Positions 10,992 through 39,191 of a stretch of DNA of 64,000 nt are shown here, in pieces. The translations under genes were made by a program, and so were the position numbers. Origin of the DNA: Bryobacterales bacterium (GTDB lineage Bacteria > Acidobacteriota > Terriglobia > Bryobacterales > Bryobacteraceae); contig JAFAQY010000106.1 in NCBI GenBank assembly GCA_019261985.1, positions 22,214 through 86,213 on the forward strand. Direction: 5' to 3'. The notes beneath the pieces were generated by a model, which saw nothing but the letters and a program-made list of their open reading frames with translations, did not search any database and was not told the DNA's origin. Numbering within the stretch: the stretch's first letter is position 1; each line of letters opens with the position of its first letter.

Positions 10992-13900
10992 TAAAACACG
11001 TATTTCAGCGCGCCCTGAAGAATCCGCGGGTCGCGCGCGCTAAGAATCTGCCCGTAGGTGGGACTGTTCAGCGTCGCGTCGGGATTACCAAACCGCGCAT
11101 GGTTGAACACGTTGAAAGCCTCGGCGCGGAAGTCAATGCGGTTACGCTCCGTGATGCGAAAACTGCGCGATAGCGCTACGTCAACATTCCACGCTCCCGG
11201 CCCGGTGATCACGCCCACCCCCGAATTGCCCCAGCTTCCTGTCGGGGCGGGGACGAATGCGGACGTGTTGAACCATTTGGCGATGGACGGATTTGCCAGA
11301 TCCGGACCGGCGACAGCATTCGGGCGCGTGCCGCTGCCTGTGAGCGATGTATCGAAACCGGTTGCCGGCGTGACATGCGTTCCTGTCGCGGCAGTGAAGA
11401 TGGTCGATTCCTGCCAGTCGCCGAGTAGCCGCCGCGTCCAGCCGGCGGAGAATCTCGGCGTTCGAACCACACCTGTAAGATTGAAAACCTGACGGCGATC
11501 GGAAAGGCAATTGCCGTACTCGGCCTCGCGGTTGTTGGGGTCCTGAGGACTGGCTCCGCCATTGAGCGCAACTTCGTTTTCGGTCAGGCAGTGTGACCAC
11601 GTATAATTCGCCAGAACCGTAAAGCTGTGCGTGAAACGATGCTGAGCGGAGAGCAGCATCGCGTTGTAGGTCGCGATCGCGCCGTCGCCAAAAGGAGTAA
11701 CCGCGGAATAAGCAGCCGCCTTGGCGGGGTTCGACAGGTACAGGACTCGCCGGAAATTCGTGTTCGATTGATTCGAGCATGGTCCCGCGGCAGTTAGCCC
11801 ATATTGGCCGTCGGCGCAATTGCCTGGGATATAAATTGCAGGATTCAGCGGCTCGCCCATTTCGAGATGCAGAGTTCGATTCCCCAGATAAGAAGCTGAG
11901 AGCAGCCAGTCGCCGGCGACCTGCTTTTGCAGCGCGACATTCCACTGTTCCATGTAGGTTGGCTTCGGGTTCAATTTGAAGAAACCCAGTCCGCCCCCAA
12001 ACTGTGGAAAGGGCACATTGGCCGGCAGCGGACTGGGGAGCGGGAACGGGTTCGTTCCGTAAGTCGAGCCGGCGTAAGGATCCGAGAACCCGCCGGCCGG
12101 ATTCGGGATACTTACCGGATACGCAAAGGGAGCATGGGTTCCGTTTTGCAGAAATAAGGGCACGGCGCTATAAAAAATTCCGTAGCCTGCGCGGATCGTT
12201 TCGAGACCTTTCCCCCGAGGGTCGTAGACCACACCTATGCGCGGAGCGAATTCGGCCCAGCGGCTGTTGAAGTAGTGGTTTGCAGGCATGCCCGGATCGC
12301 CGACGAACAATGTTCCCGCCGGCGCGTTGGTGAATACCCGGCTATGAATGCCGGCGCTATACCATCCGGGGTCGAAGATGCTGACTTGCGGAACCGCCTT
12401 CCATGGCGAGACGTAAGGGTCCCATCGCAAGCCTGCGCTCACATTGAAACGCGAGCTGAGACGGATGTTGTCCTGCACGAAAAGCGAGGGGAACGTCAGC
12501 CGCTCATCGCCGATCTGGCCGTTGTTCTGCGAGAATGACGACGGTTTGCCGAGCAGGAAGTCGGCCAGCGAATTGCCCGTGTTCTGCCCGTTGAACGTGA
12601 AATTTCCGTTGCGTGAAAAATTGCCGAAGGAATTCAGCCGTGAATTCTGCCCAGTGGCCCCGAAGGCGATTTGATGCGCGCCGCGGATCCAATTGATCTG
12701 CTCGGAGAGCTGGTAATTGGTGGAAATCCACGGCCCGGGCGAGCAGTTCTGGCACACCGGCGTGAAATAGCTGGTGATGTTGATGAAGGCGTAGCCCGGC
12801 ACTCCCTGGGTAACATTCGCGCCCAGTTGTGTCGGCGTCGGGACGCCGGGCGGCGTGTACCGGATGACGGAGGTCCGGCTGAAGGACGCCCTGAAGGAGC
12901 TGATCATCCGCGGATTGATGACGAAATTCTCGCCGGCCACGGCTGAATTGACGCGATCCGCCAATCCGACGCTTGCGTCGGTGGACATGGTCAGCAGGTT
13001 GTCTGCGAAGTACGGCGGGTGCTGGTAATCGGTGATGAAATAACGCGCAAACACGGAATGTTTGTCGTTGACTTGCCAATCCGACCGGACGACGTACTGG
13101 TTTTCATGATCGCTGCTCGGGATTCCGTATGTGAGCTTCCCGCAGGGGTTCGACGATACAGGAATCAGTTTCAAGAGATTCAGCGCAACGGGATTGAGAA
13201 GGCTGGCCGGGACTTTGTTTCCGACGAAAGGAGCCTTGAGCGTGACATTTCCGCAGGAAGCGATTCCAGTAAAATCGCCCTGGAGAGCGGCGGCCGTGGC
13301 AACGAAGTTTATGTTTGCGGCGGGTGCGACTTTTTCGAAAGTGCCTTGATATCCCCCAAAGAAGAACAGCTTGTTCTTGATAATCGGTCCGCCTATCGTA
13401 CCGCCGAACTGATTGCGTTTGAGCGAATCGCGTGCCGGAGCAAAGAAGTTTCGCGCGTTGAGCGCGTAATTGCGGATGAACTCGAATGCGTCTCCGTGGA
13501 ATTGATTGCCGCCGCTTTTTGTGATCACGTTGATCACTCCGCCCGGCTGCGAACCGTAATTGGCCGGCAATGAGCTGGTTTCGACCTTAAACTCCTGAAG
13601 GGCGTCGGGAAACGGCATGGGAAGTCCGATATTGGAAATCGGGTCCATATGGTTGCCGCCGTCGAGCACGAACAGCGTCTGTCCGCCTTGGCCGCCCGCC
13701 ACCGAGAACGCTGAAGACGTTGGGTAGTTCTTGTTCGAGATGAGCGATTGACCCGCGCTGGTCGGCACGAAATCGTTTGCCGCCCCGGAGAGAGTTACCA
13801 GTTGTGTGACCTGGCGGCCATTCAGCGGAAGCTCGAGCACACGTTCCTGATCGATTACCTGCCCTATGCCGGGATTGTGAGTCTCCACTTGAGCCGCATT

Positions 13901-14269
13901 GGCCACGACTTCGATTTGCTGAGTAACCCCGCCCACGTTCAGTGTGATGTTGATCTGGGGATTCGTATTCACTTCCAGTACGATGCCGGACTGCATATAC
14001 GGCGCGAAGCCCTCTTTAGAACCTCGAAGCGCGTACGGCCCGGGAGGCAGGTTGGACAGGAGATATGAGCCATCCCGCCCGCTCTTGACGGTTCTGGCGA
14101 TGGCGGTGTTGGCGTTGGTGATCGTGATTTCGGCGTCAGGAATAACGGCGCCAGTCGCATCTTGGACGGTTCCGGAGACTTGGGAAACCTGGCTCGTCTG
14201 CCCCCAGGCGCTGCCGGCCCAAAGCAAGACAGCAATGAAGAGGGCAGCCGCAACACACGAACTCTTCAT
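10991..14269 (-). CDS. TonB-dependent receptor with carboxypeptidase-regulatory-like domain (2 of 3)
   Basis: 1092-aa ORF. Signal peptide, VSGTVQDATGAVIPDAEITITNANT, plug motif LPLNGRQVTQL, C-terminal GALKYVF. Confidence 0.85.
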   Translation of the reverse strand: MKSSCVAAALFIAVLLWAGSAWGQTSQVSQVSGTVQDATGAVIPDAEITITNANTAIARTVKSGRDGSYLLSNLPPGPYALRGSKEGFAPYMQSGIVLEVNTNPQINITLNVGGVTQQIEVVANAAQVETHNPGIGQVIDQERVLELPLNGRQVTQLVTLSGAANDFVPTSAGQSLISNKNYPTSSAFSVAGGQGGQTLFVLDGGNHMDPISNIGLPMPFPDALQEFKVETSSLPANYGSQPGGVINVITKSGGNQFHGDAFEFIRNYALNARNFFAPARDSLKRNQFGGTIGGPIIKNKLFFFGGYQGTFEKVAPAANINFVATAAALQGDFTGIASCGNVTLKAPFVGNKVPASLLNPVALNLLKLIPVSSNPCGKLTYGIPSSDHENQYVVRSDWQVNDKHSVFARYFITDYQHPPYFADNLLTMSTDASVGLADRVNSAVAGENFVINPRMISSFRASFSRTSVIRYTPPGVPTPTQLGANVTQGVPGYAFINITSYFTPVCQNCSPGPWISTNYQLSEQINWIRGAHQIAFGATGQNSRLNSFGNFSRNGNFTFNGQNTGNSLADFLLGKPSSFSQNNGQIGDERLTFPSLFVQDNIRLSSRFNVSAGLRWDPYVSPWKAVPQVSIFDPGWYSAGIHSRVFTNAPAGTLFVGDPGMPANHYFNSRWAEFAPRIGVVYDPRGKGLETIRAGYGIFYSAVPLFLQNGTHAPFAYPVSIPNPAGGFSDPYAGSTYGTNPFPLPSPLPANVPFPQFGGGLGFFKLNPKPTYMEQWNVALQKQVAGDWLLSASYLGNRTLHLEMGEPLNPAIYIPGNCADGQYGLTAAGPCSNQSNTNFRRVLYLSNPAKAAAYSAVTPFGDGAIATYNAMLLSAQHRFTHSFTVLANYTWSHCLTENEVALNGGASPQDPNNREAEYGNCLSDRRQVFNLTGVVRTPRFSAGWTRRLLGDWQESTIFTAATGTHVTPATGFDTSLTGSGTRPNAVAGPDLANPSIAKWFNTSAFVPAPTGSWGNSGVGVITGPGAWNVDVALSRSFRITERNRIDFRAEAFNVFNHARFGNPDATLNSPTYGQILSARDPRILQGALKYVF

Positions 14270-16648: not shown

Positions 16649-18526
16649 ATGACTAAGTCTGTATTTTCGCTCCTGACAATCGTGTTAGCCGCGCCGGTAT
16701 TTTCAGCGGAGGGAGATTGGTACACCGTCGGAGGCGATTTCGGCCACACGAAATATTCATCGCTCAAGCAGATTACGACCGCGAACGTTTCGCATCTGGC
16801 GCCGGCATGGAGCTTCGACGCGGGCGGGGGCGAGGTTACTCCGATCGTCATCGATGGTGTGATGTATTACCCCGCCGGAAGCAAGATCGTTGCGCTTGAG
16901 GCACACACGGGCAAGGTGCTGTGGCAGACCGATATGAGCAACTTGATCCCGGCTACGCCCGAAATGCTGGTGAATCCCGCGCGCGCCGCGGGCCTTCCCG
17001 CGGGACGAGGCGCGCAGGCTTCGAACAACGCATTCCTGCGGCTGGGTAATAGCGCAAAATATGGGGTCTCCATGTGGACCGACGGCGGCGCGACTCCGCC
17101 GCGCATTGTGGTGGCAACCACCGGCGGCTATCTGATCCAGCTTGATGCCAAGACGGGCGCGCTCTACAAGGATTTCGGGCAGCGCGGCGCACTCGATCTC
17201 AGGATCAACGCCATGGAGAAATTCTCATCGAGCGACTACACGCCTGGGATGCTTCCCACGATTTACAAGAATCTGGCCATCATCGCTCCGCGCACTGGCG
17301 AGCAGGGCCGTTACGGTACGCCCGGCGATGCGCGAGCTTTCGATCTCGGCACGGGAAAAGAGGTCTGGCGCTTTCACGTTGTGCCGCATCCGGGAGAGCC
17401 GAATTTCGGCACGTGGGGCCTCGACGGATGGCAGGACCGCCGCGGCCCCGGAAGTTGGGTCCCTATGACCGTGGACTTCGCAAGCGGCACGATTTTCATG
17501 GCGACGGGCAATGCGACGGATCAAGATTACGGCGCGCCCCGCCCCGGCGACAATCTGTATTCGAGCAGCCTGGTGGCTATCGACGCCGCAACCGGCAAAT
17601 TGCGCTGGTACTTTCAAACCACGCATCACGACATCTACGATTGGGACCTCAATTCCCCGCCGGTTCTCGCAGACATCACCGCCAACGATGGAAAGAAAGT
17701 CGCGGCGGTATTGCAGAACACCAAGCAAGGGTATCTGTTCGTGCTGGATCGCGTCACCGGCAAGCCGATCCTTCCGATTGAGGAGAGGCCGGTTCCTCCC
17801 AGCGACGCGCCGGGTGAAGTCACCTCGCCAACCGAACCCGTCCCGTTGAAACCGCCTCCGTTAGGACGTGTGAGTCTGAGCCGCGACGAAGTCGCAAACC
17901 TTTCGCCGGAGAGCCACAAATTCTGCCTGGACATTTACGACAAAGTTCTTCAGGCAGGCGAGGGTACGCCGTATTCGATGGTTCCAACGCTGGTGTTTCC
18001 TAGCTCCACGGGCGGCGGCACATTCGCCGGAGCTACCTATGATCCGAATTTGAACTACATCTTCGTGAACGACAAGGAAGTGGGCACCATTGCCATGCTC
18101 ACTCCGCAGCTTTCTTCGAACACCTTCGAATCGCTGGCAAAATCGAAACTCCCGTTCGTCGATCGGAACGGATATCCGTGCTCGACGCCTCCTTGGGGAG
18201 AACTGATGGCCGTGAATGCCGCAACGGGCGACATCGTCTGGCGTCAACCGCTGGGCGAGTACAAAGAACTCACCGCCAGGGGCATCCCGAAAACAGGCAC
18301 GGAGAATTCGGGCGGGTCCATCGCCACGGCGGGCGGGCTGCTTTTTATAGCGGCGTCGCAAGATAAGATGTTCCGCGCGTTCGAGTCGCGCACGGGGAAG
18401 GAACTGTGGAGCGCGGACCTGCCTGCGAATGGGAACGCAACTCCTTCGACGTTTCTCGGCAAGGATGGCAAACAATATGTCGCGATCTGTACCAGCCGGG
18501 GAGTGGCGGCCTTCCGGCTACCGTAG
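16649..18526 (+). CDS. Soluble periplasmic PQQ-dependent dehydrogenase, paralog 2
   Basis: 625-aa ORF. GAGGAA ribosome-binding site, signal peptide, DWYTVGGDFGHTKYSSLKQITTANVSHLAPAW, YFQTTHHDIYDWDL. Confidence 0.85.
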   Translation: MTKSVFSLLTIVLAAPVFSAEGDWYTVGGDFGHTKYSSLKQITTANVSHLAPAWSFDAGGGEVTPIVIDGVMYYPAGSKIVALEAHTGKVLWQTDMSNLIPATPEMLVNPARAAGLPAGRGAQASNNAFLRLGNSAKYGVSMWTDGGATPPRIVVATTGGYLIQLDAKTGALYKDFGQRGALDLRINAMEKFSSSDYTPGMLPTIYKNLAIIAPRTGEQGRYGTPGDARAFDLGTGKEVWRFHVVPHPGEPNFGTWGLDGWQDRRGPGSWVPMTVDFASGTIFMATGNATDQDYGAPRPGDNLYSSSLVAIDAATGKLRWYFQTTHHDIYDWDLNSPPVLADITANDGKKVAAVLQNTKQGYLFVLDRVTGKPILPIEERPVPPSDAPGEVTSPTEPVPLKPPPLGRVSLSRDEVANLSPESHKFCLDIYDKVLQAGEGTPYSMVPTLVFPSSTGGGTFAGATYDPNLNYIFVNDKEVGTIAMLTPQLSSNTFESLAKSKLPFVDRNGYPCSTPPWGELMAVNAATGDIVWRQPLGEYKELTARGIPKTGTENSGGSIATAGGLLFIAASQDKMFRAFESRTGKELWSADLPANGNATPSTFLGKDGKQYVAICTSRGVAAFRLP

Positions 18527-19502: not shown

Positions 19503-20051
<549 letters not shown>

Positions 20052-20204
20052 TACGCAAGGGTATCTGACATTGCTTCCGCTCAGACGGTGTCTGTTGGGG
20101 AGCCGGTTTGGCAACCAGTCAGACGCAAGCCGGACCGCGAGCGTTGGAACCACGGGGGTATTGGCTTACTATGGCGATCCGAAAGGGGAGGTTGGCGTCC
20201 GGGA

Positions 20205-21299
20205 TCAAGGTAAAACGACCATGCCGCCGGTCATGTCATTATTCAAATCCCACGTCGTTTCGTGCTTAAACGTGACGGCATCGTAAACGTCGATCTCGAA
20301 TCCCGCCCCGTACATGTATAGCTTCGCGCCGTTGGCTGAAATTCCGAAACTGTACCGCGATCTGCAGGGCACTTCACCAGTGCGGGCGAGTTTACTGGTG
20401 CCAAGATCGAGCCCCCAAAATTCGCAGCGCTTGTTGCCTAGGGTTCCGTTCGTGATAACGGTGTAGCCCATTTTCTTATCCGGCGTGACGCGCAGATTCG
20501 TCATTGCGACCGGCGCTGGGCCCATGGCCGTGAAATCGAACTTTCTGGTGTTGAGGTCGAATCGCGCCAAGCCGAATACGCGATTGTGAACGATCGGATC
20601 GGAAAAATTGAATATCGCGACGTGTTCTCCCGGTTGGCTAATCGATTCCAGAAGACCTCCGAGTCCGAGATTTTCGATCGCGGGAGCGTCCGGCTGCGCG
20701 AGATCGATCTTCTCAACGATGCTGAAGTCGGAGGAATTCAGCACGGTTACCGTGGATCCGAATTGATAGAGGTATTTTCCGTCCGGAGAGACTTCGAATC
20801 CGCCACCGTTGCGGCCGCCACCCCCTCCTCCGCGCCCCCCCCGGCCGGGCTCATCTTCGGGCTGATCCACCGTCTTCACGATCTTCTGCTGCGCCATGTC
20901 GATGATCGTGTATTTAGGTTTACCGATCGCGTAACGGTCGATTTGCTTCGTGATTTCAATCGTCGAAGCGTAAAGCAGCTTTCCTTCTGGGTCCGGAGCG
21001 CCTCCATTTATCCGATACCGGTGGGTTGCATCGTCCAACACAAAATGATTCGTAATCTTGCGCGAGGCGAGGTCTAGAACTTCGAACCCACTATGGTCAT
21101 TCGTGCTTACGATAATGGATTTTCGATCGTACGAGAGCCGCAAGCCCCTGGGAAGTCCCGTTACCAGATGAATTCGGTCAACGATTTTGCCCTGAGCTTC
21201 ATCGATTACGAGAATCCGATCCGGATACGCGCCGGCGAAAATCGTGCCTCCGCTCGCGATGGCCGAAATAAGACCGAGACTAACGAAAATTAGCTTCAT
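20205..21299 (-). CDS. qhpB: QHNDH beta subunit-like 7-bladed beta-propeller (locus 1)
   Basis: The ORF runs 20205-21374. The start is placed at MKLIFVSLGLISAIASG (signal peptide), 23 nt after the qhpC stop. Propeller-like repeats are present, and the gene sits immediately downstream of qhpA-D-C. Contains a Gly/Arg-rich insert, GRGGRGGGGGGRNGGG. Confidence 0.7.
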   Translation of the reverse strand: MKLIFVSLGLISAIASGGTIFAGAYPDRILVIDEAQGKIVDRIHLVTGLPRGLRLSYDRKSIIVSTNDHSGFEVLDLASRKITNHFVLDDATHRYRINGGAPDPEGKLLYASTIEITKQIDRYAIGKPKYTIIDMAQQKIVKTVDQPEDEPGRGGRGGGGGGRNGGGFEVSPDGKYLYQFGSTVTVLNSSDFSIVEKIDLAQPDAPAIENLGLGGLLESISQPGEHVAIFNFSDPIVHNRVFGLARFDLNTRKFDFTAMGPAPVAMTNLRVTPDKKMGYTVITNGTLGNKRCEFWGLDLGTSKLARTGEVPCRSRYSFGISANGAKLYMYGAGFEIDVYDAVTFKHETTWDLNNDMTGGMVVLP

Positions 21300-21322
21300 A
21301 ATCTTCACTCGGGAAACACCTG

Positions 21323-21694
21323 CTATGGGAACACCAAATCCAGGTTCCGCCAATCCTTCGTGGCGGCGGCGCACTTACCCGCCCAATCGGGATAGTTGTT
21401 CAAGTGATCGGGAACCTGCGCCGGCCAGAAACATGTGACGTAGCAATCATAGATATCGCGCTCCACCGGTTGGCACAATCCAGCGGTTCCACCGGAGGAA
21501 TCCACCTCCCATCCCGGAGAAAACGCCAGCGCGCATCCCATAGGCACGTGCGGACGTGGCGGGGGCGCCTGATTTGGTTGGTTCTGAAGAGCCACTACAT
21601 CATCGTCTGAATGTCGCTCCGATTGCGGCCGTATTGCGGGATCCATATGCTCGATGCGGCGCGCCTTTTTGTTTACTGCTCGCAAATGTTTCAT
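21323..21694 (-). CDS. qhpC: QHNDH gamma subunit precursor (cysteine tryptophylquinone and thioether-crosslinked peptide), locus 1
   Basis: The ORF track extends to 21799, but the ATG at 21694 overlaps the qhpD TGA (ATGA). The core is GCALAFSPGWEVDSSGGTAGLCQPVERDIYDCYVTCFWPAQVPD...DWRNLDLVFP. It carries Cys7/Glu16, Cys27/Asp33, Cys37, Cys41, Trp43 and Asp49 at canonical spacing (numbering as recalled from the Paracoccus/Pseudomonas enzymes). Confidence 0.8.
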   Translation of the reverse strand: MKHLRAVNKKARRIEHMDPAIRPQSERHSDDDVVALQNQPNQAPPPRPHVPMGCALAFSPGWEVDSSGGTAGLCQPVERDIYDCYVTCFWPAQVPDHLNNYPDWAGKCAAATKDWRNLDLVFP

Positions 21695-23130
21695 AGCGCC
21701 TTCCTTTCCGCGAATTTTTCCAGAAACTCTGGATTTTCCGCGCTGATGGTACCGAAAATGCGCAAACAGGTGTCCGTCCAATCCCTGATCCAATCGCAAT
21801 AATGCAAATTAGGATGGCCGGTGTCGCCGTAACGAACGAAAGCTTCGTGATGGCAGCCGCCGGCACACAGCGGGCGCGCCCAGCATGTGTGGCACTCGTA
21901 CTTGTTATTGATATGGCCGCGCTGCAGAAAATCCGTCTGTTTAGCGCGGTCCACTCCGGTAGCGATGTTGCCCATTGCGTGAGTATCGGAATCGACGAAG
22001 CGATGGCACGGAGCGATATCTCCAGACGGCCCTACTCCCATCAGGCCCAAGCCGGCGCCGCACGGATGGGATTTGTTGACTCCTTGATAAAGCTCGGCGA
22101 TCGTGTCGCTCACGTTGGTGAACCCGTGCATTTCGCCACGCAGCGCATATTCCAGGTATTCGCCCGCGAGGATGTGGAACTGTTCCAACACTCCGTTCAT
22201 ACCTGGCTCATTGATGGCGTACAAACGATCGGGCGAAGTGGTGACGGGTGCGAATCCGACTTCATGAAAGCCAAGGTCGTCTTTCAAGTGCCTGTAAATG
22301 CGCACTACATCCGTCACGCCATTCGTCAACGTAACCCGCGCCGTAATGGGACGGGTGCGGTGGCCGTGAATCAGCGCTTTCACCCGCGGCTCAATCACGT
22401 CGTAGCTTCCACGGCCGTTCGCGAAAACTCGCAGCTTATTATGCAGGTCGGGTGGACCATCCATGCTTACGGTCACGCCGATTCGGTTTTCCGAGAGGAA
22501 TTCGATAATTGCGGGAGTGAGCAGCGTCGCATTGGTGGTCAAACTGAAATCGATGCTCCGGCTCTTGGCGGCCGCGCGCGCGTTGGCATAGGTCACAACA
22601 CGCTTGAGCAACGGAAAGTTCATCAGCGTTTCCCCGCCGAAGAACGTGATATGCACGGCCCGCCGGCCGGAGGAATTCTCGAGCAGAAAGTTCACCGAGC
22701 CCTTAGCGGTCTCAATGTCCATGAACTTCGGCTTGCCGTCCGGAGTCGCTACCTTGTCTTCTCCGAACTCATAGCAATACTGACACGACAGGTTGCACTG
22801 GTTGGTGAGGTTCATCACCAGACTTTGCATGGGAAAGTCTGGTGGAGGCGGCTCCAATGGCTCGGTTTCCGCATGGACCGGCACGATCGCCCGCACTTGC
22901 GCTAGCTCGTCTATCAATTCCGCTGCATCGTTATAGGCGAAGTCGCGTTGCATCAGTCCCGCGACGAGTTCCTCGCGAGTCGCTCGCTTCCCGGCAAGCT
23001 CGCCGACCACCGCGGCCGCATCGGAATCTATTTCGAAGATGGCCCCCGCAGGAACTACATACAGGAACTTGCGGCCGCCGCCTTCAAAACTGTGAAACTC
23101 GCCCAGCCGGTACGCTGCGCCCGCACTCAC
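21691..23130 (-). CDS. qhpD: Radical SAM/SPASM peptide-crosslinking maturase, locus 1
   Basis: CNLSCQYCYE is the CX3CX2C radical SAM motif. The C-terminal SPASM cysteines are CGAGLG...CHRF...CHTCWARPLCAGGCHHE. The likely GTG start at 23130 overlaps the qhpA stop (GTGA). The ORF track's TTG at 23154 is the alternative. Confidence 0.85.
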   Translation of the reverse strand: MSAGAAYRLGEFHSFEGGGRKFLYVVPAGAIFEIDSDAAAVVGELAGKRATREELVAGLMQRDFAYNDAAELIDELAQVRAIVPVHAETEPLEPPPPDFPMQSLVMNLTNQCNLSCQYCYEFGEDKVATPDGKPKFMDIETAKGSVNFLLENSSGRRAVHITFFGGETLMNFPLLKRVVTYANARAAAKSRSIDFSLTTNATLLTPAIIEFLSENRIGVTVSMDGPPDLHNKLRVFANGRGSYDVIEPRVKALIHGHRTRPITARVTLTNGVTDVVRIYRHLKDDLGFHEVGFAPVTTSPDRLYAINEPGMNGVLEQFHILAGEYLEYALRGEMHGFTNVSDTIAELYQGVNKSHPCGAGLGLMGVGPSGDIAPCHRFVDSDTHAMGNIATGVDRAKQTDFLQRGHINNKYECHTCWARPLCAGGCHHEAFVRYGDTGHPNLHYCDWIRDWTDTCLRIFGTISAENPEFLEKFAERKAL

Positions 23131-24917
23131 TTGGTCACCTCCGGTTGGTCCCAACGTATGTAAGTAGGAATCGTCACCACAAGATAAGACTTGCCCACCA
23201 GCGGCTTCCCATCTTTATCTTTCTCGTTCTTTGCAGTTGCCACTACCCAGACGTTGCCGTAATTGTTTCGGCTGAATTTGCGCTGGGGGTTGGGACCGTC
23301 GAGGTTGGGAGTGAATAGACCGTGGCCGTCGAGCGTTCCTACGAATTCCTTGTCGTCGTCGCCGAAAACGGAATAGAACTCCTCGATAGACCAACTGACA
23401 TCTATGGGTCCTAATTCAATGTCGTCGCCGGTGCGCAGCTTACCGTCTTCGCCGCGGTGGTACGCCATTACTTCGAGTTGCTGATAGCCCTTGGGATGTG
23501 GAGATTTTGAATCGCCACCCAACCGCGCTAGCGAAGCTTCAGGTAACACCTTGATGTAATCCACCTTGTCGTAAACGGCAAGAGCACCCTCCAGCACCGA
23601 ATTCCGGAATGACACATCGCGCTTTCCCGGAACAGCGGTGGAAGCGACATCTAACTGCGCAACAATTTCGGTGGACGTGTGGGAAGCGATCGACTTTACC
23701 GTGATGCCCGAACCAAAATCCAAATCCCCAACGGCAACCTGCGCGGGCAGATTGCTCCCGATTAACCGTAGTTGCTGGCCCTGCGATCCCGTTTTGACCG
23801 AATAACGATCGATCGTGAGCAACGTGGGTTCCGGGGTAGCGCGTTTGAGCGTCACGTCCACGCCGAATTCCTGATACTCGCCCCAGAACCACCGGCCTTG
23901 CGCCCAGGTCTGATCCGGCGAGATCCACAGTGCCTCGCGCATTTCGGCCGATAGATCGTTCGGGACCGGGTTGGCTGGAGCGGATGTGCCTTTAGAACGG
24001 CCGCGCCAAGAGTAGCCTGCATATACCAATCCCGTGCCGATTCTTGAAATGGCGGCTCCGCCGCCGACCGGCTGCAACTTAAGAGAAGTCGTAAATTCGT
24101 CGTCGGCAGCTCCGGGCGAGATGATCAACTCGCCGTGGTATTTTCCATGTCCGGGGATATGCGCGGAAATCAACCACCGGCCTGCGATTTTGGGCGATCG
24201 CATGCGCGCGCGCCACGCGGCCCACTCCGGAGTGCGCAAGCCGTAATTCTTGCCAAGAAAGTCGAGCGTGATGTCGAGAGAAATGTTTGCCGCGTTCGCC
24301 GCGGCAGCGGCATCGCCACCGCCGCCGCCCTCGCCGCCTCCGTTAGGTCCCGCGCCGTTTCTTCGAAACGCCGCGTCTGCCTGCTGATAGAGCGCCGAAT
24401 GCAGATCGGCGAGCAAGGACCACTCCGCGCGCGTCCGGCGCCACTGGAATGGACGTCCCAGAGCATGACAGTTCATGCAGGTAGCACGAATGGAGTCGTT
24501 TGGGATGGTTTCATCCTGAATGCGATGCTCGGCCATATACATCACGGGCTTAGCTTCTTCCGGCGCCAAACCGTGAGACGCGCTCAGGTATTTCACGATC
24601 GCCTTGGCGTCGGCCGGCTCGAGCGTGAGCCCGTTCAGGCGCACCATGCGTTTGATGGCCTCTTCCCACCCCTCCGGAGTGGTGCGAATCCACGAAATTC
24701 GCGTTAAATTGTCCTTCTCGTCCTTCCGGTGACAGCTCGAGCACTTGCTGACGGTGAGGGTGTCTGTGACAGGGATTCCCTCTTCCTGAGCTTCGGCCGC
24801 GCCGCCGCGGCCGGTGGCGTTGCCCCCTCCGCGTCCATTGCCTCGGCCTTGGCAAAAGGCCGGAGAGGACAGCGTGATTATCCCTAACACGAGACCAATG
24901 GCGATCGAATTCTTCAT
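23127..24917 (-). CDS. qhpA: QHNDH alpha subunit-like di-heme cytochrome c protein, locus 1
   Basis: 596-aa ORF with a signal peptide. Two CxxCH motifs (CSSCH, CMNCH) lie in an N-terminal domain containing RISWIRTTPEGWEEAIKRM, followed by long beta-rich domains. Two Gly-rich low-complexity inserts are present. Confidence 0.8.
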   Translation of the reverse strand: MKNSIAIGLVLGIITLSSPAFCQGRGNGRGGGNATGRGGAAEAQEEGIPVTDTLTVSKCSSCHRKDEKDNLTRISWIRTTPEGWEEAIKRMVRLNGLTLEPADAKAIVKYLSASHGLAPEEAKPVMYMAEHRIQDETIPNDSIRATCMNCHALGRPFQWRRTRAEWSLLADLHSALYQQADAAFRRNGAGPNGGGEGGGGGDAAAAANAANISLDITLDFLGKNYGLRTPEWAAWRARMRSPKIAGRWLISAHIPGHGKYHGELIISPGAADDEFTTSLKLQPVGGGAAISRIGTGLVYAGYSWRGRSKGTSAPANPVPNDLSAEMREALWISPDQTWAQGRWFWGEYQEFGVDVTLKRATPEPTLLTIDRYSVKTGSQGQQLRLIGSNLPAQVAVGDLDFGSGITVKSIASHTSTEIVAQLDVASTAVPGKRDVSFRNSVLEGALAVYDKVDYIKVLPEASLARLGGDSKSPHPKGYQQLEVMAYHRGEDGKLRTGDDIELGPIDVSWSIEEFYSVFGDDDKEFVGTLDGHGLFTPNLDGPNPQRKFSRNNYGNVWVVATAKNEKDKDGKPLVGKSYLVVTIPTYIRWDQPEVTK

Positions 24918-25078: not shown

Positions 25079-25106
25079 ATTGTTGGATAACACTCGGATA
25101 ATGTCA
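25079..25106 (-). promoter_or_regulatory. Candidate sigma70 promoter for qhp locus 1 (-35 TTGACA, 16-nt spacer, -10 AACAAT)
   Basis: Reverse-strand sequence TTGACATTATCCGAGTGTTATCCAACAAT, about 160 nt upstream of the qhpA ATG. The spacer contains the direct repeat GGATAA-N5-GGATAA (plus-strand view). Called on sequence pattern only. Confidence 0.3.
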
Positions 25107-25125
25107 ACGCTTGTTCTGCATATTT

Positions 25126-26253
25126 CTATTGTTTTTGTCCGGCCAATGCTAATACCGAGTATGCCGTCGCCGCGTCACTCATAAACCGTCCGGCGTCGGA
25201 TGTGGGATCGCGTTGTTTGTTCAGCGAGGTCGCGATCCACCGGCCTGTATCCCGGTCCTGATTTTTGGAGAGCCATCCAAGAGCACTCTTCAAATGCGGT
25301 TCGCCGGTTGAGGTCCCGGCCCGCTCTAGCGCGAGCGCCACGAGTCCGGTGGCATAACCATCGCTGTTTGTATCGAGCTCGGTCGAATCCCTGCGCTTCC
25401 AGCCTCCAATTACCACGGACGAGGTGCTCCAGCCGCCATCGCTCCGCTGTTTACTAAAAAGCTCGTTCACAATCGCTGTTCGGTCGGAGGGCTGCAGAAT
25501 CCCAGGTACACCAGCCCCTGCCCAGAGCAGCACGGCTTTGTTCAACAACGATTGGCGCGCAGCATTCCGCGCGAGATAGCCGGCGAGTAAAGCTACATTC
25601 GCCTTAACCTGTGCTTCTGACTGGTACTCCCTGGGCGCGTTGCCTACAGCGATCGCCGCCAGCGTCGCACCCCAGAATTGCGAATCGTCCGCTTCCCACG
25701 GCTCGTTGTGAAAATTCAGCCAGGTAAAGGCGCCCGCGGAATCGCCGGTTTTAAGTTGCAAGGCCCACATGTTTTCAAAAGCCTTGCGGGCATCGTCGCC
25801 GAGCTTGCCATCGCGCGTATCATAGCTCGACAGGACCAGCGCGTTAAGAACGGATTCCGTGCCTCGGGCCTCGGCCGTCTTCGGCGGCCCATTCTTTTCG
25901 TCACTGTAGAAGGGCAGGGCCTCGGGCCAGATGCGAATGCGCTTGGCCACGTTCGCGATCAATTTGCGTTCACCGGCTGAGGGGCCGTTCTCGGAAAGTC
26001 GCGCGCGCAAAGCCGGCCGCCCCAGGGCGTAAGGAACAGCTGTGTGGCACGAAATACAAAACGTATCGTGATCTCGAGCGGCGGATGGCCAGGTTGTCCA
26101 CCACTCGAATCGCTGGTCCAAGTACGCGGCCGCGGCTTTGGCATTCCATGAAGCCGCCGTATTGGCGGAGTCCGAGGCATCCGCGGCAAACGAAGCCGCG
26201 GGTACTAGCAGGCATGCAACCGAAAGCGGAATAGTCTTCTTCATTGACCTCAC
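25126..26253 (-). CDS. Secreted protein with one CxxCH heme-binding motif and prenyltransferase/terpene-cyclase-like alpha/alpha-toroid repeats
   Basis: 375-aa ORF with a signal peptide. CISCH motif near the N-terminus. Repeats such as RSDGGWST and SDGYATGLVALALERAG are typical of the squalene-cyclase/prenyltransferase repeat fold. Function unknown. Confidence 0.5.
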   Translation of the reverse strand: MRSMKKTIPLSVACLLVPAASFAADASDSANTAASWNAKAAAAYLDQRFEWWTTWPSAARDHDTFCISCHTAVPYALGRPALRARLSENGPSAGERKLIANVAKRIRIWPEALPFYSDEKNGPPKTAEARGTESVLNALVLSSYDTRDGKLGDDARKAFENMWALQLKTGDSAGAFTWLNFHNEPWEADDSQFWGATLAAIAVGNAPREYQSEAQVKANVALLAGYLARNAARQSLLNKAVLLWAGAGVPGILQPSDRTAIVNELFSKQRSDGGWSTSSVVIGGWKRRDSTELDTNSDGYATGLVALALERAGTSTGEPHLKSALGWLSKNQDRDTGRWIATSLNKQRDPTSDAGRFMSDAATAYSVLALAGQKQ

Positions 26254-26304: not shown

Positions 26305-29300
26305 TCAAAAGCTCAGCCGCCCTGTAACCTGGATCGAGCGGGGGCCCCCGTTTTCCTGCGATTGAACGTTGTTGAGGCTGGAGAATCCCGCTGTACCGAT
26401 ACTGAGATTCGAAGGGACTGCGTAATTGGGGTGGTTAATCGCGTTGGAGGCTGCTGCTCCAATCTGAATCTTCATGCGCTCCTTAACCTGAAATGACTTG
26501 AACAACGAAAGCGAAACGGCCTGTGTTCCGGGCCCGACGACGGCGCCGACGGGCGAATCGCCCGGACGGCCAATGTTGTTCGCCGGCTTTACGAATGCGG
26601 CAGGATTAATCCAGCCGCCAATGCCCTGGTTGGCGGGATAGAGAGGAATGCCGGAAACGATATCGGCGCGTCCCGCTCCGGAGGTGTTCACCGAGTTGTT
26701 GCCGGAAGGATCGGCTCCGGGTGCGATCACGGTCAAGAATGGCCCGGTTTGAAATAGCAACACACCGGAAAGTTCCCAACCCCCAATAAGCGCATCCATG
26801 AAACCGTTCGCGTTGCCGAACAGCATTCGGTTGTGGCCGAAAGGCATTTCATAAAGAAACGTCGTGAGAAAGCGATTCCTGTGAGTGAAAGAGACGTTAC
26901 CGTAATCGAGATTGAGGTTGTAAATATCGGTTACGGTTCCTCCGGCTTGGGTTGCGAATGCCGTGGGGTTGTAGCCTTGTCCATTCGAAAGATTCTTGGC
27001 AAAGGTATAGCTGCTGGCGAATTGCAGGCCGTGCGACATCCGCTTATTGGCCGCGACGGTAAAGGCGTTGTAGTTGCTGCGGGCTCCCGTGCTTTCCTGC
27101 GCAATGTATGCCCACAACGGATAGGCCGAGCCTGCGGCGGCTTTAGCAAAGCCAATCGTATTCGGAGCAACCTGCGCCAGGTTTTGGGTATATCCGATAT
27201 CGGAGCCGTGATTTCCGTCGTAAGTCAGCCGAAGACCGGTGTTAAAGCCCAGCGCTCGCTCAATTGTTAAATTCCACTGCTGCACATACGGGTCGTGATA
27301 ATGGACATCCGCTGAGAGCTGAAAACTCTGCGTGCCTGGTTGCGACAAATTTGCCGGGAAGGGATTCGCCAGCGTTAGCGCCGGAGTCCCGCCTACGATC
27401 GTATTCGTGTAGCTGCCGACGCTGCTTGATTGTACGGCCCATCCGGCGCTCGTGAGGGTTCCCAACATGGCTTCGATAAATCTGCCATATCCGCCGCGAA
27501 TGACTGTTTTGTCATTCCTGAATGGCCGCCAGGCGAAACCTATGCGCGGACCAAAGCTGGTTTTATCTGAATAATGAAGGGTATTGGGTAGACCCGCCTG
27601 GCCGGCGCTCAGGATCGGAGTTGGCGCGATCGATCCGGCAAATACAGAGTCCACTGGCGCGTGGTTAGATACCGCCACTGCTCCGTGCACCGTTACACCG
27701 TTAACGATCGAATAGGAGTCCGGAAGAAATACGGCCATGTTGTTCCAGGCATCGGTAAACGGAGGATGGTACTCCCAGCGCATGCCGTAATTGACGGTGA
27801 GGAACGGACTCACTTTCCAATCGTCTTGGGCAAACACCGCGTAATGGACGGCGCTCCCGTTGGAGTCCGGCGCATCGACGATGCCGACGCCGGTGCGGTC
27901 GGGAATCCCCAGCAGGAAAGCCTGGTACGGATTGAGACCCGTTACGGAGCCGTTAAAAGTGTACTGGCCCGCGCGGTTGCCCGCGAATACATTGCTGAAA
28001 TACGCGGAGAGCCGCCGAATGTCGCCTCCAAATTTGTACGAATGGGAGCCCTTGGTCCAGGTGATATTGTCGATCAATTGCTTGGTTTGAGAACGCGATA
28101 CAGAACTGGCGGTGGAACTGGTTGACTGAAAACCAGTGATAGTGAAGGTGGGGGTAGCGCTGCCCACGGGCGGATCGGGCAAGGGGACGCCAATCGCAGA
28201 GGTTATAGCCGTTGCGTTGATACCGGTACTGGTGATGACACGGGTAGCCGTAATGCCCACCCGCAATTCGTTCACGACCGTGGGCGAGATCACCCAATTG
28301 TGCGCGCCCGTGAAAGCATAATCCATTTCCGGCTGATGCGTACCGCCCGCGAGAATCGTCCCTGTGGAGGATGGTGGATTTGTAATGTCCTTGTACTTAT
28401 ACGTTCCGCGGACGAATAAGGTCTGCTTGGGCGTGATCACCTGGTCGATCCGCGCGTCAGCCTGATTGCTGCTGATCGGCGTGGGAAAATTCACTGCGTA
28501 GTTGTTTGCGATAGCGTTCGCCGGTCCCGTGTTCGGAAGAGGAAACAAATAGTTGAGCGCCGCCAATGAAACCGGCGAAATTTGGCTCAGGGGGATCTGG
28601 CCGAGCTTATAAACCGACAGGTCTCCACTGCGCAACGCCAGCGATGGGACACTTTGGACGATGAACTGCTGGCGCGGCAACTGCAGCCCTTCGTAACTCA
28701 TGAAGAAGAACGTTTTGTCCTTTCCGTGATAGAGACGCGGGAGCACCACCGGTCCACCGAGATACCCGCCATAGTTATTCATATGAATCTGCGAAACTGT
28801 CGCGCTGAAAGGATTGCGGGCGTTCATATCGGTATTTTGAAGATTCTCGTAAACGCCGCCGTGCAGCGAATTCGTTCCGCTTTTGGAAATAGTGGTGATA
28901 TCGCTGACGCCGCCGAACTCAGCGGCATTGTTAATCTGACTAACGCGGATTTCTTCGATAGTTCCGAAGGACGGGAACAATTCAGCGATCGGCGCTTCGC
29001 TTCGCACGCTCATTGTGCTGATGCCGTCAATGGTGATGGAGAGCTGGCTTGGTTTGGTTCCGGCCACCGAAAGAGCACCCGCGCCGTCCGTCTGCACTCC
29101 GGATTGCGTGGTCAGCGTTGAGATCGCGCTAGTCGAGCCAAGCGCGCGCGAACCGATCGCGACCGGAAGATCAACCAGCTCGCGTCCGCTCTTCGTCTCC
29201 GCGATGTTCGAAACTTCCGTCGTGATCACCGCAACATTGGTCGAAGTCACATCGACGGTCTGCACCTGTCCCGCGACTACCAGAGCGCCATCCGCGCGAA

Positions 29301-29616
29301 GAGTCTCGCGCGCGAGCAGCGACAAATTCTTCAGCATAAGGGGTTGAAAACCCGGCGCCTCCAGCACGATCTCATACATTCCCGGCTCGAGATTCACAAT
29401 CGAATAGCTACCTTCTTTGTCCGTCACTACGGACCGTTTCACGCCCGTGCCGGTGTTGGTGACGGTAACGATGCAATCGGCGATCACGGCCCCGGATGGA
29501 TCGCGCACAGAGCCGACGAACGATCCGAAGGTTGATTGCGCCGCCGCAAAAGATACGCAAAGCAAAAGAGTAATAAGGCCGGTGATTACCTGGCGGGAAT
29601 TCTTAGATCTATACAC
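26305..29616 (-). CDS. TonB-dependent receptor with carboxypeptidase-regulatory-like domain (3 of 3)
   Basis: The ORF track starts at a TTG at 29631. The GTG at 29616 is preceded by GGAGGAG 6-8 nt upstream. Sequence shows a signal peptide, FGSFVGSVRDPSGAVIADCIVTVTNTGTG and a C-terminal TGRLSF. Confidence 0.85.
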   Translation of the reverse strand: MYRSKNSRQVITGLITLLLCVSFAAAQSTFGSFVGSVRDPSGAVIADCIVTVTNTGTGVKRSVVTDKEGSYSIVNLEPGMYEIVLEAPGFQPLMLKNLSLLARETLRADGALVVAGQVQTVDVTSTNVAVITTEVSNIAETKSGRELVDLPVAIGSRALGSTSAISTLTTQSGVQTDGAGALSVAGTKPSQLSITIDGISTMSVRSEAPIAELFPSFGTIEEIRVSQINNAAEFGGVSDITTISKSGTNSLHGGVYENLQNTDMNARNPFSATVSQIHMNNYGGYLGGPVVLPRLYHGKDKTFFFMSYEGLQLPRQQFIVQSVPSLALRSGDLSVYKLGQIPLSQISPVSLAALNYLFPLPNTGPANAIANNYAVNFPTPISSNQADARIDQVITPKQTLFVRGTYKYKDITNPPSSTGTILAGGTHQPEMDYAFTGAHNWVISPTVVNELRVGITATRVITSTGINATAITSAIGVPLPDPPVGSATPTFTITGFQSTSSTASSVSRSQTKQLIDNITWTKGSHSYKFGGDIRRLSAYFSNVFAGNRAGQYTFNGSVTGLNPYQAFLLGIPDRTGVGIVDAPDSNGSAVHYAVFAQDDWKVSPFLTVNYGMRWEYHPPFTDAWNNMAVFLPDSYSIVNGVTVHGAVAVSNHAPVDSVFAGSIAPTPILSAGQAGLPNTLHYSDKTSFGPRIGFAWRPFRNDKTVIRGGYGRFIEAMLGTLTSAGWAVQSSSVGSYTNTIVGGTPALTLANPFPANLSQPGTQSFQLSADVHYHDPYVQQWNLTIERALGFNTGLRLTYDGNHGSDIGYTQNLAQVAPNTIGFAKAAAGSAYPLWAYIAQESTGARSNYNAFTVAANKRMSHGLQFASSYTFAKNLSNGQGYNPTAFATQAGGTVTDIYNLNLDYGNVSFTHRNRFLTTFLYEMPFGHNRMLFGNANGFMDALIGGWELSGVLLFQTGPFLTVIAPGADPSGNNSVNTSGAGRADIVSGIPLYPANQGIGGWINPAAFVKPANNIGRPGDSPVGAVVGPGTQAVSLSLFKSFQVKERMKIQIGAAASNAINHPNYAVPSNLSIGTAGFSSLNNVQSQENGGPRSIQVTGRLSF

Positions 29617-30048
29617 GTTACGCTCCTCCAAAGAAGATTTGTTTCCTTCGTGGGTAGCGCGAACGCTGCGCGACGGATACGGTTCGCTAAAAACTGGAAA
29701 AAATCTGTCCCGGCCGGAGGGACATCATTTGGGAGTGACTCAACTCGGTCACCGTTACGTTTTCTCGCATGTGGAGAACGTAAGCTGAATAGTCATTGAT
29801 TCTAACATCCACGGCAAAGAACTTCAATGGCGAACAAATCACTAGATTGAATCATCGCGATAAAAAAGAATTATTGGCGGCACCCAACTTTGTTGGAAAC
29901 AAAAAATGTTTAAAATCCGCGCTGTTCGATTTATACTTGCATGAAGACCCGCGTCGGTCCCGCCTAAGCAGGCTGCTGTCCGCACGTTCCGGCTAAGAGA
30001 ACAACCCCTTCTCTGAGAAATTCTCAATTCCAAATTCGAGGTGAGCCG

Positions 30049-31473
30049 GTGATCCGTTGGATCGTAGCAGCGGGAGTTGCGCTGTGTATCGCAGCCGTAG
30101 GTCAGCCTGGCGGTTTGCCATTCACGATCGAGGCGGTTGAGAACGTGAGTGCCCATTTCCCCGGTGCGCCGAAGCTGCAATCGTTTGCCTGGGCACAGTG
30201 GGATGGCAAGTGGATTTTTATCGGGGGCAGAACCACGGGATACCACGGCGTCGGGGCCGCGGACGCGGATTTTCCCCGCGCCGGCAGCAACGACAGGATC
30301 TGGGTGATCGATCCTTCCTTAGCGAAGACTTACAGCTTCCCGCTGGCGAGTCTGCCCAGCGCCTTGACAGCTGTTAAAGACCAATGGCTATCCAGCAATC
30401 TTCTGTTTTTTCAGGACAAAAGCACGTTATATCTGGCGGGCGGCTACGGAGCGAACTCGAATGGAAAGTTAGTCACGTATCCGGTTCTATCGCGGGTCGA
30501 TCTGCAAGCTCTGGTGAAGGGTGTTGTCGCCGGAACGGATACGTTCTCCGACACGATCCGATGGACCACAAGTACTCTGGTGCAGTCGGCCGGAGGCGAG
30601 TTGCTGAAGCTCGATGACGGTTCGTTTTATCTTGCCGGAGGACACGTGTTCACAGGAAGTTATCGGGATTTCGAAGCGGGGAATGAACAGGAGACGAAAA
30701 CTGCGTCGCAGAAGTACCTGGGGGAGATCCGGAGGCTGAAGTTAACCGATGCGGGTGGGCGCCCGTACGTTGACTTGATCGAGCGCTACGCCGATCCGGA
30801 ATTCGCCCGACGCGATTTAAACGCAGGCCTGATTATCCTTCCCGACGGACACTCTCTCGGCGCGGCAATTTATGGCGGCGTGTTCACGCGAGAGCAGCTC
30901 AATTTTTCGAAGCCCATTTATTGGGACGCCTTTACAAGCCCTCACGTAGATGAGTATGAGCAGAAGATGAGTGCCTATTCCTGTGCCACCGTCCAGATGT
31001 TCGATCCGGATTCGAAAACCATGTACACGACGTTTTTCGGGGGTATCAGCCGGTGGACCTGGGACGAGAAGAAAAGTGTGTTTGTCCAAGCACCATTGGT
31101 GGGCGATAAGACCAAAACCGTTTACCTCGACGGCATGCCGTGGATCGACCAGATTTCTACACTTGCTCGCCATGGCGGCCATAGCGAGGAGTTCGTTCAG
31201 TCTTCTCGTCTGGGCGGATTCGTTGGAGCGAACGCGGCGTTTCTGCCGGTGGCTGGATTGAAAAGAATACGGGCGGATGCGCCGGTTTACGATCTCTCCG
31301 CGCTGCGCGGAAAGCGAACTCTGATTGGTTATATTTACGGCGGCATCCGTGCGTTTCCGCGTGAATTTCCTTATCTCGAAAGCTCGCCTTCCTACAGCGC
31401 AGGGAACGTGCCTACCAAACCGAACGATCTGATTCTGGCCGTGTACATCACGGTCCCGGCATCGCGGCGCTAA
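30049..31473 (+). CDS. Secreted Kelch-like beta-propeller protein (hypothetical)
   Basis: 474-aa ORF with a GTG start and a signal-like N-terminus. Recurring Kelch-like motifs: WIFIGGRTTGYHG, LYLAGGYGAN, FYLAGGHVF, AAIYGGVF, TTFFGGIS, GYIYGGI. Confidence 0.45.
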   Translation: MIRWIVAAGVALCIAAVGQPGGLPFTIEAVENVSAHFPGAPKLQSFAWAQWDGKWIFIGGRTTGYHGVGAADADFPRAGSNDRIWVIDPSLAKTYSFPLASLPSALTAVKDQWLSSNLLFFQDKSTLYLAGGYGANSNGKLVTYPVLSRVDLQALVKGVVAGTDTFSDTIRWTTSTLVQSAGGELLKLDDGSFYLAGGHVFTGSYRDFEAGNEQETKTASQKYLGEIRRLKLTDAGGRPYVDLIERYADPEFARRDLNAGLIILPDGHSLGAAIYGGVFTREQLNFSKPIYWDAFTSPHVDEYEQKMSAYSCATVQMFDPDSKTMYTTFFGGISRWTWDEKKSVFVQAPLVGDKTKTVYLDGMPWIDQISTLARHGGHSEEFVQSSRLGGFVGANAAFLPVAGLKRIRADAPVYDLSALRGKRTLIGYIYGGIRAFPREFPYLESSPSYSAGNVPTKPNDLILAVYITVPASRR

Positions 31474-35110: not shown

Positions 35111-35125
35111 CTGTGTTGCCTCTCG

Positions 35126-35473: not shown

Positions 35474-35484
35474 GAGTGGTCCTT

Positions 35485-38747: not shown

Positions 38748-39191
38748 CGGTTATTTCCCCTTCCGTTTCTGAGAGCGCACCGCTCACAACACATCGTCAC
38801 TTCACGAGGACGGACGTTTGCTTCAGGCGAAGAGCAAGATAATGCGAAAGACGGGAGACGAGGTCCGGCGTGGACTACAGAGGCGCTCACGCAAACACTG
38901 TGTGAGCGCAAACGGGCAGAGCCGCGAGGTACTCGCGAAAAGTCAATCTAGCATGGCCGGGATTTTCTGTCAATGCCGTTCTGAAAATTACATATTGCAT
39001 CTCAACAAATGCGCGTGTTATAGCTCTAGAAGTCCGGTATTCGCCGCGTTTGTTGCGAAATTGCCCCTGTCAGGTTAGTGTCGAGCTGATCCCGCGCTCA
39101 GCCGCGCTGTGCCCCGACGCCCTCTTTTCCCCTGTTTGGACCGAAATCGTCAGCCTTTACAGATTGAACTGAATTTCCTTTACGAGGGCAA

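Follow-up and report, generated by a model that had tools for sequence, protein, structure and literature searches.

Can two divergent copies of an enzyme be matured by a single protease, exporter and hydroxylase? This question is raised by a 64,000-nucleotide stretch of a Bryobacterales genome (GCA_019261985.1, contig JAFAQY010000106.1, positions 22,214 to 86,213; hereafter the 64-kb window, in whose positions all coordinates are given), which carries two sets of genes for quinohemoprotein amine dehydrogenase (QHNDH), here called set 1 and set 2. QHNDH biogenesis serves as a model for protein-derived cofactors and for maturation resembling that of RiPPs (peptides made by the ribosome and modified after translation), and all studies of it concern single-copy proteobacterial operons. 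The radical SAM maturase QhpD, the protease QhpE and the flavoprotein QhpG are reported to act in a single-turnover fashion; because each works once, the maturation enzymes are thought to be encoded together with their substrate, a link made by the authors of that work (PMC7876137). Set 2 comprises a complete structural set and a maturase, and its operon lacks qhpE and qhpF. We put at roughly 60% the probability that it represents an intact cassette of an old lineage that is matured in trans by proteins encoded with or near set 1.

An intact second structural set

Set 2 spans positions 20205-24917 on the minus strand, in the order A2-D2-C2-B2.

23127-24917, minus strand: qhpA2, di-heme alpha subunit, 596 residues, with a signal peptide and two Gly-rich inserts
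21691-23130, minus strand: qhpD2, radical SAM/SPASM maturase, 479 residues from a GTG start
21323-21694, minus strand: qhpC2, gamma precursor, 123 residues (leader of about 47, core of 76)
20205-21299, minus strand: qhpB2, beta subunit, 7-bladed propeller, 364 residues counted from MKLIF

All four genes were found where the initial annotation had placed them. The alpha subunit contains the heme motifs CSSCH (residue 59) and CMNCH (residue 147), the GTG start of D2 overlaps the stop of A2 (GTGA), the ATG start of C2 overlaps the stop of D2 (ATGA), and B2 starts 23 nt past the C2 stop. We scored the products with curated NCBIfam equivalog models of the QHNDH alpha subunit (TIGR03908), maturase (TIGR03906) and gamma subunit (NF037958). 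A2 reached 510 bits (cutoff 274; A1, 448 bits), D2 628 bits (cutoff 453; D1, 520 bits) and C2 131 bits (cutoff 50; C1, 116 bits), and set 2 outscored set 1 on every QHNDH family model. A2 contains all four alpha-subunit Pfam domains (PF09098, PF14930, PF09099 and PF09100) and aligns over its full length with 1jmx_A (E 1.9e-61). D2 carries the radical SAM motif CNLSCQYC and eight further cysteines, and all 11 cysteines align with those of D1. Aligned to 1jju_C and 1jmx_G, C2 keeps C7, E16, C27, D33, C37, C41, W43 and D49 (1JJU numbering), which comprise the cysteine tryptophylquinone (CTQ) residues Cys37/Trp43 and the thioether pairs Cys7-Glu16, Cys27-Asp33 and Cys41-Asp49; C1 keeps the same eight residues. 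Signal peptides are predicted on both A2 and B2. The Gly-rich inserts of alpha2 are of low complexity, the one after the signal peptide containing Arg and the one in mid-protein being rich in Ala.

Inactivating changes in one locus, which the initial annotation had named as grounds for giving up its proposal, were not found in set 2. Its reading frames are intact, the functional residues are kept, and the ratio of nonsynonymous to synonymous substitution rates (dN/dS) of the four genes is 0.02-0.14 in comparisons with three related loci (L001, L003 and L004), values that are rough since dS is saturated. On these features, pseudogenisation was rejected. All four genes are intact and under purifying selection, and set 2 has its structural genes complete together with a maturase gene. 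The GC content of set 2 (0.55-0.57, window ~0.58) gives no sign of foreign origin.

Recognizing the beta subunit required structural modelling. On TIGR03907 (QH_beta, cutoff 223), B2 scored only 51 bits, and B1, with 45 bits, also failed; a phmmer search of the PDB with the B2 sequence returned 1jju_B at only E 0.097. An AlphaFold model of B2 built from 48 sequences (predicted local distance difference test score 80, predicted template modelling (TM) score 0.79) had as its best PDB matches in Foldseek 1jju_B (E 5e-21) and 1jmx_B (E 1.8e-16), with TM scores of 0.70-0.77, and the QHNDH beta chains came well ahead of generic propellers. The modelled fold of B2 is that of the QHNDH beta subunit. 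The model leaves a Gly/Arg-rich loop at residues 150-166 disordered; the ortholog alignment likewise has a Gly-rich consensus there. Orthologs of B2 are publicly labelled 'hypothetical protein' or 'DNA-binding beta-propeller fold protein YncE'. Because the beta subunits fail the curated model and are mislabelled in public records, automated annotation would show these operons as incomplete.

An old lineage beside set 1

Set 1 lies on the same strand, and the two sets and a third alpha gene all fall within 23 kb, the clustering noted at the outset.

33992-38747, minus strand: set 1
36924-38747, minus strand: qhpA1
35485-36927, minus strand: qhpD1
35126-35473, minus strand: qhpC1
33992-35110, minus strand: qhpB1

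The paralogs are strongly diverged, with identities of 43.5% (A1/A2), 47.5% (D1/D2), 53.7% (C1/C2) and 32.3% (B1/B2). We surveyed relatives of set 2 in a genome scan using one genome per species, from which the best 80 of 339 QhpD relatives were kept (L001-L080). All 80 are orthologs of D2, at 71-86% identity, and the A2-D2-C2-B2 order holds in all 80 loci wherever the contig covers the genes. The labels are Bryobacterales, Solibacteraceae or other Acidobacteriota metagenome-assembled genomes (MAGs) in nearly every case; one (L061) is labelled Solirubrobacteraceae. Type-1 loci come from a metagenome scan with D1 as the query, which yielded 40 D1-type loci at 67-100% identity, including a fragment identical to the window (L081). 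Their conserved layout is G, A1-D1-C1-B1-F-E and then a convergent gene without a family hit (working label 'kelch'), and the order A1-D1-C1-B1-F1-E1 is kept in 20 metagenome loci.

A neighbour-joining tree of QhpD splits deeply into a D1 clade and a D2 clade. Judged by these comparisons, set 2 is an old paralogous lineage widespread in Bryobacterales (Acidobacteriota). It is a lineage of the known QHNDH system rather than a new kind of system. The initial annotation had proposed dating the duplication by phylogeny, but the D, F and E trees reveal no datable local duplication, only two deep and separately conserved lineages. A recent copy of set 1 was considered and is ruled out by the 32-54% identities together with the deep splits in these trees.

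A silent or decaying set 2, or one that arose as a recent local duplicate without functional divergence, is very improbable. Such an origin would fit the lack of E, F and G in set 2 and a count of promoter-like sites in the region that does not exceed chance. It is at odds with intact, translationally coupled reading frames that keep all functional residues, with the low dN/dS, with orthologs in every kept genome locus, and with a set that is far from set 1 in sequence and scores above it on each QHNDH model.

One protease, one exporter and one flavoprotein gene

Searching the window by tblastn with every qhp protein, we found a single copy each of three accessory genes, none of them inside set 2.

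31470-32189, minus strand: qhpE, subtilisin-like leader protease of the E1 clade, 162 bits on NF049966 (cutoff 165)
32161-33879, minus strand: qhpF, ABC exporter (ABC_membrane and ABC_tran) of the F1 clade
40535-41536, minus strand: qhpG-like, flavoprotein of 333 residues, 63 bits on NF049967 (cutoff 240)

The search returned no extra copy of E, F, G or gamma in the 64-kb window. The absence of dedicated exporter, protease and flavoprotein genes from an otherwise complete second set, as initially annotated, is therefore borne out, and the window's single E and F are attached to set 1. We extended the window edges through identical proteins on another assembly (GCA_019242875.1), which gained ~10 kb of sequence to the left and ~3.5 kb to the right, free of qhp genes. 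The flavoprotein aligns with 7ctq_A, the Trp-dihydroxylating monooxygenase QhpG of Pseudomonas putida, at E 2.5e-4 (residues 120-321 with 146-367), and its homologs adjoin qhp genes in many related loci.

Trees of the accessory proteins indicate where these genes belong. The exporters form two deep clades, F1 (the window F and those following B1) and F2 (those directly after B2), and the protease tree mirrors this split with clades E1 and E2. F2 adjoins B2 in 17 loci, in the layout A2-D2-C2-B2-F2-E2 and often with G nearby. In the D tree, the closest relatives of the window D2 are L001 and L003, in which a TonB-dependent-receptor-like gene and a mono-heme gene are followed by A2-D2-C2-B2, and E, F and G are all missing from the available sequence of L003 (21 kb) and L001 (11 kb). 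Together the three are sister to a clade of six loci (L004, L007, L014, L020, L021 and L076) with F2 directly after B2, and E2 as well where the contig reaches; qhpG adjoins A2 in L004, L014, L020 and L033. Because set-2 operons of the sister clade carry F2/E2, several with qhpG beside A2, their absence here points to secondary loss. The simplest reading is that the window lineage lost F2/E2 and an adjacent qhpG from a full type-2 locus, and did so fairly recently.

A RibD_C-like gene downstream of B2 (19503-20153) was found in no related locus. An EstD-like alpha/beta hydrolase with a DUF3887 N-terminus (39192-40526) here lies between A1 and G on the opposite strand; in many relatives, it belongs to the type-2 operon, directly after B2 and often overlapping the B2 stop.

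Several other contigs combine type-2 structural genes with accessory genes of the set-1 kind or with single copies. In L066, L106 and L109, both sets are present and convergent. In L066, one G and one F adjoin A2 and one E adjoins B1; in L106 and L109, B1 is followed by the only E, and the contig shows no F. These cases, with two sets around single accessory genes, fit the suggestion in the initial annotation that QhpE and QhpF are shared. In L024, L025 and L030, G-F1-E1 are followed by a mono-heme gene, a receptor-like gene and A2-D2-C2-B2. In L017 and L018, A2-D2-C2-B2 and a hydrolase gene are followed by E1, F1 and G on the opposite strand. Genes of the F1/E1 clades also lie beside type-2 structural genes in L057 and L058. 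None of these seven loci has type-1 structural genes within 21 kb. Next to its cleavage site, C2 has the same sequence, typically RPHVPMGC, in many genomes carrying E2/F2 as in the F1-linked loci examined. Positions counted backwards from Cys7 in mature 1JJU and 1JMX put Arg at the predicted P1 site of both gamma types, before PHVPMGC in C2 (QRPHVPMGC) and before VYYPLGC in C1 (GRVYYPLGC); the predicted cuts follow Arg47 of gamma2 and Arg39 of gamma1.

On balance, we favour the view that set 2 is matured in trans by the set-1-linked E and F and the single G-like protein. The gamma2 precursor would be made with its leader of about 47 residues. QhpD2 would bind this leader through its divergent N-terminal domain and install three thioether cross-links. 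The single QhpG-like flavoprotein would then hydroxylate Trp43 of gamma2, the single QhpE would cut the leader after the conserved Arg, and the single QhpF would export the product. In the periplasm, gamma2 would assemble with Sec-exported alpha2 and beta2 into a second amine dehydrogenase isoenzyme. Since QhpE and QhpG are reported to be single-turnover, the output of set 2 would depend stoichiometrically on expression of the set-1 locus.

Several points weigh against maturation in trans. The window G falls well short of the QhpG cutoff, and most of its C-terminal winged-helix domain is missing, a domain that forms one wall of the gamma-binding pocket proposed for P. putida QhpG; moreover, the G tree is poorly resolved, and the window G can be assigned to neither set. 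All trees are neighbour-joining with midpoint rooting and carry no support values. Accessory genes are often remote, with E, F and G all absent up to 10 kb from D2 in 18 of the 45 full 21-kb set-2 loci, and because unlinked accessory genes are common, the proximity of the set-1 genes is no proof of their use. About 77 kb of the genome is covered, and copies of F2, E2 and G2 could lie elsewhere. The 'hybrid' loci that pair F1/E1 with type-2 structural genes could have type-1 structural genes just past their 10-kb flanks. The two maturases may cross-react, and the second may be kept for dosage rather than specificity, as discussed with the leaders below. Finally, the locus is known from its sequence alone.

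A rival reading is a self-sufficient set 2, with its own F2, E2 and G2 genes elsewhere in the genome and nothing shared, which we consider unlikely. A distinct F2/E2 clade linked to set-2 operons does exist, unlinked accessory genes are normal in the order, and the portion inspected is small relative to a multi-megabase genome. But no copy or remnant of F2/E2 follows B2 or occurs anywhere in the window by tblastn, one G, F or E lies between or around two sets on several contigs, and in others, F1/E1 stand beside type-2 structural genes only, so that F1/E1-type genes do accompany type-2 sets.

Extending trans maturation to the order as a whole yields a broader proposal, to which we give even odds. 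The Bryobacterales would have a modular QHNDH economy, in which interchangeable structural cassettes (alpha, gamma and beta) bring a private, leader-matched D (some being D-less) and one communal module of single-use E, single-use G and F serves at least two isoenzymes; in the window, the type-2 set would be matured wholly in trans and its yield capped by set-1 expression. If so, E and G must read only features common to both gammas, for which the Arg at P1 and loop residues 39-51 are candidates.

Leaders and maturases

Both the maturases and the gamma leaders diverge between the two sets. The leaders of C1 and C2 are 38.5% identical with an 8-residue indel (C1 being the shorter), and the aligned cores are 67-70% identical, close to the 70% that had been estimated by eye. 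Between D1 and D2, the first 100 alignment columns, presumed to be the leader-binding region, are 26% identical, compared with 53% over the remainder. QhpD binding is reported to require the leader (PMC7876137). Judging by spacing relative to where mature 1JJU begins, about 47 residues precede the predicted mature start of C2; among them are the family-wide motif LRAVNKKARRIE and DVVALQ. Both leaders keep MKxLxxxNxKARxxE and DVxALQ, and [LI][KR]x[VIL]NxKA recurs across gamma-family representatives, Pseudomonas-like ones included. The earlier statement that the leaders differ strongly is thus only partly right and goes too far: identity is low and one leader is shorter, but where it probably counts the two agree, sharing the family motif, DVxALQ and the predicted P1 Arg.

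L036 and L047 have an extra A-C-B set without D adjoining a full type-2 set (L036, 1324-4547; L047, 1-2083). The D-less gamma of L036 has a C2-type leader, and that of L047, of which the leader and the N-terminus of the core are on the contig, is nearly identical to its neighbour's; both alphas of L047 are only ~55% identical to A2. Retention of C2-type leaders by D-less sets is what would be expected if a leader must fit the available D. These patterns, with the divergence of the D N-terminus, agree with the idea in the initial annotation that each QhpD is specific for its own leader, and a private QhpD combined with shared QhpE and QhpF is plausible.

A less favoured but substantial alternative is that QhpD1 and QhpD2 are interchangeable, each set keeping its D for dosage rather than leader specificity. 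The leader motif is family-wide and kept, with DVxALQ, in both gammas, so D1 and D2 may cross-react. QhpD is reported to be single-turnover and to form a stable, stoichiometric complex with QhpC (PMC7876137), so a second D could be retained for dosage as well as specificity, and the D-less A-C-B sets imply that one D can serve two gammas. Interchangeable maturases would sit less well with an N-terminal region that is the most divergent part of D, with leaders more divergent than the cores, and with D-less sets whose leaders stay C2-type, near-identically so in L047.

The locus provides a natural experiment, in which two divergent gammas and two radical SAM enzymes stand beside a single protease, a single exporter and a single hydroxylase. 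Tests could directly address which step is specific for the leader, which steps accept either Ala42 or Phe42 in the core, and how enzymes that work only once are divided between the isoenzymes.

The predicted isoenzyme

The most likely product of set 2 is a second amine dehydrogenase isoenzyme in the periplasm. Gamma residue 42, beside the cofactor Trp, is Phe in the window C2 and Phe or Tyr in the C2 sequences inspected, Ala in 38 of 38 C1 sequences and Trp in the crystallised enzymes. Because of this difference at residue 42, the pocket of the isoenzyme probably differs; a substrate pocket distinct from that of set 1 is plausible, as is the diversification of substrate or redox partner. Residue 42 also falls within the loop that is docked into QhpG (PMC7876137).

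Both gammas of the window (21323-21694 and 35126-35473) and every full-length ortholog seen have a fifth conserved Cys, which follows Lys (KC) and lies six residues before the conserved Asp of a DW pair. It is missing from the two crystallised enzymes and common in other gamma-family representatives. Cys and Asp are as far apart here as in the Cys27-Asp33 cross-link, so that a fourth thioether, or a bond between subunits, is conceivable.

Comparison with known systems

The best-studied relatives are the qhpABCDEFG(R) systems of Paracoccus denitrificans and Pseudomonas putida (1JJU, 1JMX; PMC7876137). Like them, set 2 has a four-domain, di-heme alpha subunit, a gamma with CTQ Cys37/Trp43 and three Cys-Asp/Glu thioether pairs, a QhpD gene between alpha and gamma, a beta-propeller beta subunit and the leader motif. 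It differs from them in lacking its own qhpE, qhpF and qhpG, in its longer gamma leader (~47 residues, compared with 28), and in having Phe42 instead of Trp and the fifth conserved gamma Cys. Its beta subunit is only 18% identical to theirs and is missed by curated models and public annotation. The set-2 alpha and beta have Gly-rich inserts, and TonB-dependent-receptor-like and mono-heme genes lie upstream.

With set 1, set 2 shares the A-D-C-B order, the functional residues, the fifth gamma Cys, the leader motifs and the predicted P1 Arg; set 1 differs in having F and E directly after B, Ala42 and its own cleavage-site sequence. Self-contained type-2 loci (L004, L014 and L020; L007 and L076) have the same gene order as set 2, with identities of 76-82% (D2), 70-76% (A2), 76-78% (C2) and 70-73% (B2). 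They keep their own F2 and E2 (55-57% and 44-49% identical to the window F and E, respectively), and L004, L014 and L020 also keep the flavoprotein gene by A2 that the window set 2 lacks.

RiPP clusters in which several precursors share a protease and an exporter follow the same logic of leader-dependent radical SAM chemistry, proteolysis and ABC export. Here, unlike in RiPP clusters, the 'peptide' is an enzyme subunit, and single-turnover QhpE and QhpG make sharing costly. The likeness is one of functional analogy, not of homology between whole systems. The qhp operon is reported from more than 1300 species, in which its genes are variously arranged (PMC7876137). The literature searched describes neither multi-copy qhp loci nor any sharing of accessory genes, in line with the earlier remark that multi-copy QHNDH loci have not been described functionally.

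Genomic neighbourhood

The genes and sites flanking the QHNDH sets include the following.

25079-25107, minus strand: promoter-like site TTGACA-17-AACAAT, in the 208-bp gap upstream of A2
25126-26253, minus strand: exported mono-heme protein (CISCH), 375 residues, with a C-terminal repeat like that of squalene-hopene cyclase (2sqc_A, E 1.3e-5)
26305-29631, minus strand: TonB-dependent-receptor-like outer-membrane protein (CarboxypepD_reg and OMP_b-brl_4), upstream of set 2 on the same strand
41489-43162, plus strand: third alpha-like gene A3, 388 bits on TIGR03908
43168-43536, plus strand: DUF6152 gene, following A3

A similar promoter-like site lies upstream of A1 (38945-38973). Such sites are not more frequent in the region than in shuffled sequence, and the A2 site is suggestive only. 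We found no regulatory motif common to the regions upstream of A1 and A2, which share a single 8-mer, and an Rfam search gave no hits. No AraC-type regulator (qhpR), through which amines induce expression in the known system, was noticed among the window's annotated open reading frames, part of which were scanned.

The mono-heme gene adjoins A2 orthologs in many loci and occurs in either orientation beside qhp operons; its product may be a redox partner of the set-2 enzyme, or the gene may be co-transcribed with set 2. Homologs of the TonB-dependent-receptor-like gene likewise precede A2 or A1 in many related loci. Abundant soil Acidobacteria thus carry several periplasmic amine dehydrogenases beside TonB-dependent-receptor-like genes, which bears on the turnover of amines and organic nitrogen in soil.

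The third alpha gene had been described as an orphan. Its presence holds, but in relatives it is always paired with the DUF6152 gene, and the pair recurs in ten loci (L016, L024, L026, L028, L046, L082, L086, L092, L105 and L106). By this recurrence, A3 is half of a conserved pair and not an orphan. It is nearer to A2 (46.8% identity) than to A1 (33.4%). Because its listed start overlaps the start of the divergent G gene by 48 nt, the true start is probably near 41537.

Proteins identical to those of the window are encoded on two shorter contigs of GCA_019242875.1 (JAFAVA010000008.1 and JAFAVA010000498.1; loci L123 and L124), so the same organism is also present, in fragmented form, as a public NCBI MAG. 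On a contig of that assembly, some 9 kb beyond the left edge of the window, an aldehyde dehydrogenase is encoded.

In its left half (2022-29631), the window has an island that pairs periplasmic quinoprotein dehydrogenases with TonB-dependent-receptor-like outer-membrane proteins.

5391-7283: pyrroloquinoline quinone (PQQ) dehydrogenase
16649-18526: PQQ dehydrogenase
2022-5231: CarboxypepD_reg/OMP_b-brl_4-type protein
10991-14269: CarboxypepD_reg/OMP_b-brl_4-type protein
26305-29631: CarboxypepD_reg/OMP_b-brl_4-type protein, the one listed above

The island also holds xylose-isomerase-like TIM-barrel proteins.

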